Source: Promethearchaeota archaeon Loki_b32 (GTDB lineage Archaea; Asgardarchaeota; Lokiarchaeia; Sigyniarchaeales; SOKP01). Taken from it: 64,000 nucleotides of DNA. Shown piece by piece: positions 12,449 to 15,008 of this stretch. Under the pieces are notes generated by a model, which was not told the origin of the DNA, ran no database searches, and saw only the letters and a list, made by a program, of their open reading frames with translations. A program made the translations under genes and the position numbers. The DNA lies in the NCBI GenBank assembly GCA_005223125.1, contig NJBH01000004.1:64001-128000 (forward strand). The letters are read 5' to 3'. Each line of letters begins with the position of its first letter. Positions within the stretch are counted from its first letter, which is position 1.

Positions 12449-12516
12449 ACCCCTTCCCTTGCGAGGTTGGTCTTCTTATAACTAGAATTTGTTTATAAGA
12501 ATCATTCCGTAGGGGT
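12449..12516 (-). promoter_or_regulatory. Eukaryote-like SECIS element (AUGA...GA kink-turn core)
   Basis: Minus strand: ACCCCU..GGA-AUGA-UUCUUAUAA-[ACAAAUUCUAG]-UUAUAAGAA-GA-CC..AGGGGU. Perfect 9-bp upper stem, adenosines in the loop, lower ACCCCU/AGGGGU helix; directly 3' of two UGA-containing genes. Confidence 0.8.
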
Positions 12517-12963
12517 AGTTATAACTTGTTTTGCTTCAACTTTCGATTTATCATCTACTAAGTTAAGTGGACTTGGTCCGGCTTTGCTAACCTTTTTGTA
12601 AGCGTCCTCAACAGATTCGACAAATTTCCCAGCATCTCCTCCACTTAACCAATACATATTTATTCTTTGATTTCCGAAACCTCTGGATTCTAAGATCCTA
12701 TTTGCTAAGTCTACATGTCTTTGAGCAGTGAAATTTCCGTTTTTAAATTGACACTCATTAGGTCGTCAACCAACAATCATGACACCATCAGCTCCCGCGC
12801 GAATGCTATATAAAATGTGCTTAATGTCAATTCTTCCAGTACATCTTACTTTGATAATTTTTACTGCAGGAGTGTATTTCATTCGAGAAACCCCAGCTAA
12901 ATCCGCCGCGCTATATCCTCATTTTATGCAAGCAAAAACGATTAAATTATAAGTATTTTCCAT
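12502..12963 (-). CDS. mvhD: Selenocysteine-containing MvhD/VhuD (153 aa; Sec UGA at 12919-12921 and 12766-12768)
   Basis: Manual translation: MENTYNLIVFACIK-U-GYSAADLAGVSR...VRCTGRID...ADGVMIVG-U-RPNECQF...WLSGGDAGKF. Both UGAs align with Cys in the paralog at 4985-5416 (CNWC, GCHIGDC). Confidence 0.92.
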
Positions 12964-12969
12964 GTTTTT

Positions 12970-15008
12970 TTAACCACCTCCTAAAAGACCATCAATTTCA
13001 GCGAATAATTGGTGATCTCGATAATATCTGATGTCAATTGCTTGAGTAGGACAACAAGTAGCACAAATACCGCAACCGTCACAATTTATTTCATCAATAA
13101 ACGCTCCGATATCTTCTTCAATTCTAATAGCATTTTTAGGACATTCTTTTTCACATCGTCTACATGAAATGCAGAATTCACTATCTACTTCAGCAGTAAT
13201 AAGTTCAATATCAATTTCTCCTGGTGATGTTACTTCAGCAACTTTACTAGCCGCAGCTCTAGCTTGAGAAACGGAGTAAGAAATATTTTTCGGTCCTTGA
13301 GCAAATCCAGCAATAAAAATTCCTTTTGCCTTTGTTTCTTGTGGCATTAAACCGAAATGTGATTCTGTAAGAAAGCCATATATATTAGTATCAAGATTTA
13401 ATACCTTTACAATCTGTTCAGTACCTTTTGAAGGAAGTGCTGCTGTAGATAAAACGACTAAATCAGCATCAATTTTTACAATCTTATCTGTTAATGACGA
13501 ATATACACGAACTTTCACGTTTTTGGTTTCGGGATCTTCAGAGATTTCACCGACTTTTCCACGAATCATTCTGATACCTGCATCTTTAGCTCGTTCGTAG
13601 TATTCTTCAAATCCTTTTTCAGGAGTTCTTATGTCAATATAGCAAATAGTAATGTTCGCATCGGGAAATTCTTCGAGCAATAAGCGTCCATTTTTTAGAG
13701 CAAGCATACAGCATACACCACTACAATAGGTTCGTTCAGTTTCTCGACTTCCTACGCATTGTATAAATACAATTTCTTTGGGTTGTTTATTATCTGAAAG
13801 CCGGTGTACATGTCCTTCAAGTGGTCCATTCGGAGCTAGTATTCGTTCTAATTGAACTTGAGTTATAACATTTTCGAATTCTCCATACCCATATTCACCA
13901 AAAGGTTCATGTATGTCCCAACCAGTTGTTATAATGATCGTACCAACTTCGATATTGACTTCCATAGGTACTTGACTAAAATCAATGGCATCTAATTCAC
14001 AGGCATCTACACATGAGAAACATTCAACACAAGCATCTCGGTCAATATCATATAAAAACGGTACTGCTTGACCAAATGGTATATCAATTGCTCTTCGAGC
14101 TCCTAAATGTTCATCGAAATAATTACTTACATATACGGGGCAAACCTCACTGCATGCACCACACCCATTGCATTCGTCTGTTGTATATCGCGGTTTTTTT
14201 TCAATTGTTACGTTATAATTACCAACATAACCCTCGATTTTTTTGACTTCACTATAGGTTAATAATTCAATGTTCTCATTTCTGTTGATATTTAGCATAA
14301 CAGGACCGCAGATTCATATTGCACAATCATCAGTGGGAAAAGTTCTGTCCAATTGAGCCATTCGTCCTCCGATTGTCGTTTTCTGTTCGACTAAGTAAAC
14401 TTTTATACCTTGGTTGGCAAGATCGAGCGCGGCATTCATTCCAGCTATACCCCCACCGACGATTAAAGTGGCCTTCTTAACTGGAACAGTCTTAATAGGA
14501 ATGGGTTCTAAAAGTTTAGCTCTTTCAATACCGCTTTTTACTAATGTTTTTGCTTTTTCTGTAGCCTCTTCTTTACTATCCGTGCACCAATTTTGCATTG
14601 AGCAGTAAATCTGCTTAAAAAAAATCTGCAATGTTCACGGACGTTAACCATCTGAAAGTAATAAGGATTTAAATCTGTTTTAGCAATTGTACCCCGGTAA
14701 ATCACTTCATGCGTACGCGGTGTTCAAGCTGATGCCACAATCCTATTTAAACCTTTTTCCTTGATATCTTCTATTATCTCATTTTGAGCGTTATCAGTTC
14801 ATAGAAAAGCGTTTTTCTTAGAAATTACAATATCATCAAAATTTTTGGTTGCAAACTCTACGAGCTCGTCGCAATCAACCTTAGAACGGATATTAATCCC
14901 TCATTTGCCAAAAACAAGGAAATCATACTTTTTTTGGCAGGCATAATATCCAATCCTTAGCTGTTCATTATCTTTATTAATCTTCGTATCATTCCATTGA
15001 CTATTCAT
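12970..15008 (-). CDS. hdrA: Selenoprotein HdrA (~657 aa after splicing): join(15008-14934, 14903-14626, 14590-12970); Sec UGA at 14901, 14799, 14724, 14314
   Basis: Manual translation: RIGYYACQ-U-GINI, AFL-U-TDNAQ, ASA-U-TPRTHE, VREHCSWCTD, PTDDCAI-U-ICGP. Each U aligns with Cys in both Cys-form paralogs here. Removing 30+35 nt gives a 1974-nt frame of typical HdrA length. Confidence 0.88.
14591..14625 (-). other. Putative 35-nt BHB-type (tRNA-endonuclease) mRNA intron 2 in hdrA
   Basis: UUGC/GCAA central helix, bulges AG^A and AA^U, outer CCGUG/CACGG helix, inner AGCAG/CUGCU hairpin. Excision gives CAT TGC AGT TGG (HCSW) and repairs the frame. Confidence 0.8.
14904..14933 (-). other. Putative 30-nt BHB-type mRNA intron 1 in hdrA
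   Basis: UGCC/GGCA central helix, bulges AA^A and AA^U, A/U intron stem, outer GAUAUUA/UAAUAUC helix. Excision gives TGC CAA TGA GGG (C-Q-U-G), matching CHCG. Confidence 0.75.

Follow-up and report, generated by a model that had tools for sequence, protein, structure and literature searches.

How can a gene that is interrupted twice, in one place by a segment that shifts its reading frame, still evolve as a gene for a working protein? The question is raised by hdrA, on the minus strand of the window, that is, the whole stretch of 64,000 nucleotides from Promethearchaeota archaeon Loki_b32 (contig NJBH01000004.1, positions 64,001 to 128,000) that was analysed here. An earlier note, comparing this gene with two Cys-form HdrA paralogs in the window, had placed a 30-nt insert in its CxC motif and a 35-nt insert in its CSW motif, and had read both as tRNA-type introns with a bulge-helix-bulge (BHB) structure, to be cut by the splicing endonuclease EndA just after the second nucleotide of each bulge. 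The two paralogs are indeed there, and the coordinates, lengths and cut positions of the inserts are exactly those that had been claimed. Judged from sequence, it is very likely that the inserts are short archaeal BHB-type introns, spliced out of the pre-mRNA by EndA and RtcB.

The gene starts with an ATG at position 15008. Deleting the two inserts at the EndA cut positions (Table 1), the rule being applied with no adjustment, restores both motifs and a frame of 657 codons that matches the 28 same-genus orthologs of our comparison set. This frame has internal TGA codons at positions 26, 60, 85 and 210 and no other stop. All four fall at Cys/Sec positions and are conserved in orthologs, codon 60 being TGT in four of them; two orthologs (L018, L021) have additional in-frame TGA, at codons 311 and 624, which are possibly additional Sec positions. 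The vhuD gene that follows is probably carried on the same mRNA. A third in-frame TGA of vhuD (codon 154) overlaps the AUGA core of the SECIS element at 12502-12505, with a TAA three codons on. The same element was found in 18 of 20 relatives' loci, and both the hdrA-vhuD pairing and the lokiSECIS shape, a 9-bp stem with an 11-nt loop, have been described for Lokiarchaeia (PMC4989117). With UGA in frame at conserved Cys positions, vhuD downstream and a shared SECIS, the gene is a Lokiarchaeial multi-Sec hdrA. Alongside it the genome encodes another hdrA of the Sec type and several paralogs of the Cys type, so that this copy is not strictly essential.

Table 1. Features of the hdrA-vhuD locus (window positions) and candidate mRNA introns at other loci of this genome (G000) and its relatives.
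Feature	Location	Strand	Remarks
hdrA exon 1	14934..15008	-	codons 1-25, C-terminal ...YYACQ; from ortholog alignment
hdrA putative intron 1	14904..14933	-	30 nt, phase 0, directly 5' of Sec26 UGA
hdrA exon 2	14626..14903	-	Sec codons at 14903, 14801 and 14726; last bases are AG of the Ser codon
hdrA putative intron 2	14591..14625	-	35 nt, frameshifting, phase 2 within the Ser codon of C-S-W
hdrA exon 3	12970..14590	-	FAD-binding motif, canonical Sec210 at 14316-14314, 4Fe-4S domains, stop
vhuD/mvhD selenoprotein gene	12502..12963	-	directly 3' of hdrA; TGA at codons 15 and 66
lokiSECIS-type element	12471..12505	-	AUGA core, 9-bp stem, 11-nt loop, GA; common to hdrA and vhuD
EF-2 P-loop insert (between AH and IDHGKT)	G000 C3:75804-75833, L180	+	30 nt, BHB, in-frame stops
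uL11 insert	G000 C57:12438-12465, L182	+	28 nt, frameshifting, BHB; from motif scan
Proteasome alpha (psmA) insert	G000 C4:22685-22713, L054	+	29 nt, BHB
Ubiquitin E2 insert	G000 C30:11080-11110, L055	+	31 nt, BHB
cdhD insert	G000 C45:47178-47210		33 nt, BHB, stop inside
LOR/scramblase-like (LOR-family) gene insert	G000 C36:188607-188636		30 nt, BHB, stop inside
gyrB insert	G000 C56 near 37010	-	53 nt, BHB
E1-like gene insert, GxGxxG loop	L190 (G018)		30 nt; central helix 3/4 paired
IF2 P-loop insert	L203		30 nt, BHB
Unnamed gene near EF-2	L199/L220		32-nt inserts

In the second insert, the central helix pairs 14631-14628 with 14596-14593 (UUGC with GCAA, four Watson-Crick pairs of four) between bulges AGA and AAU, and the EndA rule leaves the junction TGC-AGT-TGG. 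The corresponding C-S-W is read directly in the 27 of 28 same-genus orthologs that have no insert. Carriers beyond the near-identical strains (genome G024 and five more assemblies) have inserts of 32, 33, 34 or 35 nt, so that all three frames are represented. Their interior has diverged; the central helix and a 2-bp exon helix are paired in 81 of 81 cells, one C-G having changed to U-A. L330/L331 have UC instead of AG as the exon bases of the 5' bulge, and the same cut still yields Ser, written TCT rather than AGT, which pins the register of the cut. No register but that of the BHB restores EHCSWCTD.

The helix of the first insert joins 14939-14936 to 14909-14906 (UGCC with GGCA, again entirely Watson-Crick), with bulges AAA and AAU, and removal of the insert creates TGC-CAA-TGA-GGG, hence the C-Q-U-G that all 28 orthologs, none of which has the insert, read directly. 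Here the insert is in frame and free of stops over its ten codons; taken alone it might be a loop of ten residues within the CxU motif, and its status as an intron therefore rests on relatives. It is carried by L277, L311-L315 and L276. An in-frame TAA lies within it in L276 and in L311-L313 (the latter 97% identical to the window), which means that it is not a protein loop. In L276, from a species 81% identical, the insert begins with TAA and keeps 17 of 17 pairs, three of them via G-C/G-U exchange. Three registers would restore the peptide of the orthologs; only the BHB register is fully paired. The central 4-bp helix of both introns is kept in all carriers, and the inserts are the only places where stops and changes of length have built up. 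The comparison of orthologs proposed in the earlier note thus went as expected, with inserts missing in orthologs and carriers that keep the helix through compensatory or wobble changes.

How good are these motifs? When the introns were shuffled 20,000 times, four Watson-Crick pairs of four arose at the frame-restoring register in 0.12% (intron 1) and 0.15% (intron 2) of the shuffles. Neither intron has the canonical form, in which both flanking helices adjoin the bulges: each is a relaxed BHB. The description we started from thus stands for the central helices and the bulges and falls short for the outer helices, one of which is weak in each intron. Intron 1 has a good helix on its intron side and a single exon pair beside the 3' bulge. 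Beside its bulge, intron 2 has the 2-bp exon helix and, in this genome, no adjacent helix on the intron side (G024 does have one); a test of paralog junctions in which the inner-helix filter was strict passed over intron 2 itself, showing its motif to be relaxed. The BHB form is the minimum-energy fold (ViennaRNA) of neither intron, the conformer of intron 2 being at -8.0 vs -10.5 for the minimum and that of intron 1, whose A-run can slip on its U-run, about 6-11 kcal/mol above it. Covariation counts are few, and for hdrA alone do not exceed shuffle controls.

The enzymes expected in the host are encoded: two EndA paralogs lie at C18:184.2-184.8 kb and C2:78.2-78.8 kb, and there is a full-length RtcB. 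Read by eye, one paralog has the catalytic Tyr/His/Lys motif and the other lacks the His. We propose that the host EndA is a two-subunit enzyme, catalytic and structural, of the type that accepts relaxed motifs. The relaxed state of the hdrA introns matters less than it might appear to, because it is typical of cbf5 introns, cut by hetero-oligomeric EndA (PMC2738675). The hdrA(-vhuD) pre-mRNA would fold locally, setting at each intron a 4-bp exon/intron helix between two bulges; two-subunit EndA would cut each bulge just past its second base, RtcB would join the exons, and the released intron would probably be circularised. The mature message would read C-Q-U-G and C-S-W, and SECIS-directed insertion of Sec would give an HdrA of 657 residues. 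We infer this cleavage, ligation and translation from what is observed: the sequence, the restoration of the frame, the pattern of conservation and the enzyme genes. What speaks against splicing is that a spliced transcript, a circular intron and a junction peptide were all not found; in particular, public assemblies held no contig of a spliced hdrA transcript. The closest intron-less protein, P0126 (contig L332), was considered as a splice product and rejected: its DNA is a mosaic, and its junction is TCA, not AGT. Just past the intron-2 site, the hdrA of L332 (JAGLVA010000853.1) switches from a lineage 95% identical to L319 to that of the window (98%). L332 is a recombinant or a chimeric assembly.

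In the same genome, a tRNA-Glu gene (C48, near 141.2 kb) has a 28-nt intron of the same size class and build. ARAGORN finds 15 tRNA genes only in this genome, which is 95% complete, probably because many of its tRNA genes have non-canonical introns.

Is this a peculiarity of hdrA, or of selenoproteins? The feature is broader than the first reading supposed, and the two hdrA introns belong to a lineage-wide set of mini-introns in mRNAs. A motif-free search, in which proteins were aligned to DNA first and the BHB was tested second, recovered the hdrA introns and yielded, over this genome and its relatives together, 16 different coding sites with a clean insert. Fifteen of the 16 have a fully paired 4-bp helix at the frame-restoring register, and nearly all sit in conserved motif codons. 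Seven further inserts were found or checked in this genome, in EF-2, uL11, proteasome alpha, ubiquitin E2, CdhD, GyrB and a LOR-family gene (Table 1), so that at least nine such putative introns interrupt eight unrelated genes; those in EF-2, proteasome alpha, ubiquitin E2, CdhD and the LOR-family gene came from the motif-free search. The EF-2 P-loop site is common to L203 and L218, and two other EF-2 sites are occupied in 12 further loci. Around EF-2, 16 of 17 clean inserts, many of which share a site, pass a preset BHB rule, vs 0-3 under seven altered geometries; 11 of these lie at one site, where pairing holds in 97% of a 13-pair structure and one pair is compensatory. The psmA site is common to G031 and G067, with compensatory changes in the stem, and G067 psmA has a second insert, of 32 nt, between 11-nt direct repeats. 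A second site in ubiquitin E2 is occupied in G061 and G018, by inserts of 30 nt that contain stops; in G012 the frame at this site is short. hdrA itself has a third and a fourth site in relatives (39 nt in G020, L019/L052, and in G076, L308; 30 nt in G067, L299). The remaining 1.6 kb of hdrA held no inserts in 29 orthologs, making its 5' 400 nt an intron hot spot.

Scanning the whole genome for BHB motifs, as the earlier note had suggested, gave a divided answer: a motif scan found the uL11 insert, and ab initio scans for BHB and for joined ORFs gave no excess over null geometries, adjacent genes swamping the signal. The lack of excess indicates that such introns are rare and number in the tens at the most. 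In four relatives, a sample of about 600 kb of coding DNA had no insert of this kind, so that the burden, low and uneven, differs between genomes.

Could the inserts be something other than introns, or be removed in another way? That they are artefacts of assembly is refuted, and we give this next to no credence: there are homopolymer runs within both inserts, and the public contig L332 is a mosaic, but the inserts recur in at least ten independent assemblies from NCBI, ENA, JGI and Logan (among them L277 and L311-L318, from strains 97-98% identical to the window), and diverged copies exist in other species. Group I or group II introns and IS elements are excluded by the size of the inserts, 30-35 nt, by their lack of an ORF and by the absence of copies elsewhere in the genome. 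Somewhat less negligible, yet still most improbable, is a pseudogene, a redundant hdrA copy broken by hairpin insertions through template switching or tiny mobile elements. The genome has many hdrA paralogs, and the inserts hold short inverted repeats. Purifying selection nevertheless acts on the exons (dN/dS is 0.098 for the pair of the window and L277, which have both introns in common, and 0.04-0.05 between the window and other species), and this largely refutes decay. Exon 3 is free of stops in every carrier checked, the SECIS and vhuD are intact, and inserts of the same kind would break uL11, psmA, gyrB and cdhD, which tblastn found to be single-copy, together with the canonical EF-2, which has a 45%-identical paralog only.

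A functional gene might also be read by translational bypass or programmed frameshifting, the ribosome hopping over each hairpin with no RNA being cut. Such a hop would restore the protein as well, both inserts being hairpins with runs of A or U, and frameshifting has been suggested as a reading of breaks like those in cbf5 (PMC2738675). We find it very improbable: at one site insert 2 comes in all three frames, it lacks matched take-off and landing codons, and what is conserved across unrelated genes is a helix with bulge geometry, the signature of EndA. Splicing by another route deserves about the same slight credit, whether a different nuclease acts or some of the population loses the inserts from its DNA by precise excision. 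It draws on the relaxed motifs, on which the action of EndA is only a prediction; against it, the cut positions obey the EndA rule as it stands, no repeats or recombinase sites flank the hdrA inserts, and every DNA assembly of near-identical strains keeps both of them. Removal by EndA and RtcB is the reading that we retain.

If the inserts are introns, how did they get there? Carriers of intron 1 form one clade on the whole-gene tree and not on that of the downstream part, which suggests recombination. For intron 2, whose carriers are patchy on the gene tree, a single clade is rejected (AU p 2e-6). Most of the window's intron 2 sequence recurs in two carriers whose exons match the window at only 79% identity, and the interior differs in the sister lineage, whose identity is 85%. 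The non-monophyly, together with the sequence shared at 79% exon identity, leads us to think that the intron travelled laterally with little flanking DNA, and intron 2 may move between species; repeated loss with chance conservation, or chimeric contigs, are possible alternatives. Three orthologs have intron-less AGT junctions, which might be intron losses, a possibility that the tree does not support. Neither a common intron sequence nor a tRNA-intron donor turned up in the genome, and the mRNA introns have no similarity to other loci. The hdrA introns probably serve no function and are tolerated as parasites, which codons of conserved motifs have acquired recently and more than once. Nothing that we saw points to a regulatory role. 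Although intron 1 lies right next to a Sec codon, a selenium-gating role is unsupported, because most of the introns found lie in non-Sec genes. We consider it very likely that Lokiarchaeia routinely splice many mRNAs, essential ones among them, via EndA and RtcB. The larger proposal, that introns of about 30 nt in addition spread actively, entering conserved motif codons and crossing species with almost no flanking DNA, is tentative, a little short of an even chance.

Should splicing occur as predicted, then in a large family of the Asgard archaea, the archaea closest to eukaryotes, genes for translation factors, ribosomal proteins, the proteasome, the ubiquitin system and energy metabolism would rely on the tRNA-splicing machinery. 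This would be a non-spliceosomal precedent for split genes in these organisms, with many recent gains available to study how such introns arise, and annotation pipelines would miscall the genes as broken. A parallel exists in the IRE1/RtcB-type mRNA splicing of eukaryotes.

With reference to known systems, Lokiarchaeial multi-Sec HdrA (PMC4989117, PMC11227280) has the four Sec codons, the hdrA-vhuD pair and the lokiSECIS shape seen here; these two papers report no hdrA introns, and the former reports a 31-nt intron in tRNA-Sec. The BHB introns of archaeal and Asgard tRNA genes (Marck and Grosjean, 2003; bioRxiv 10.64898/2026.10.13.758758) resemble those of hdrA in size, about 28-35 nt, in their hairpin build, in repeated independent gains and in a two-subunit EndA; they differ in being sited in tRNA genes, and the 2026 preprint makes no mention of mRNA or of cbf5. 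No paper on mRNA introns of Asgard archaea emerged from a search of the literature that had most subscription papers outside its reach. The earlier note had named a few archaeal genes such as cbf5 as having coding BHB introns; this holds for cbf5, and in the searchable papers crenarchaeal cbf5 is the only documented case, earlier predictions in other protein genes being unconfirmed (PMC2738675). A 2020 study names as mRNA examples only cbf5 and Haloferax volcanii HVO_1309 (PMC7714728), whose BHB intron lies in the 5' UTR; it is an EndA substrate in an mRNA, as predicted for those of hdrA, but a single case in a non-coding position. The closest known case is the intron in the cbf5 pre-mRNA of Desulfurococcales and Sulfolobales (Watanabe, 2002; Yoshinari, 2006; Yokobori, 2009, PMC2738675), which is likewise short, BHB-like, often relaxed, placed in a conserved motif codon of a coding gene, linked to a hetero-oligomeric EndA and gained or lost among relatives; its cut follows the second bulge base, as predicted for hdrA. 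The hdrA introns do not belong to the cbf5 family, which occupies a catalytic Asp codon: their host gene is another, and the two are analogous, not homologous. In cbf5 a single site of a single gene is spliced, as experiments have established, whereas in hdrA, where splicing is predicted from the DNA, there are two introns per gene and, across the genus, four sites in the 5' part, all in an Asgard lineage. What is new here is thus very probably a chemistry of the cbf5 type put to work in many genes of Asgard archaea, with several introns per gene.
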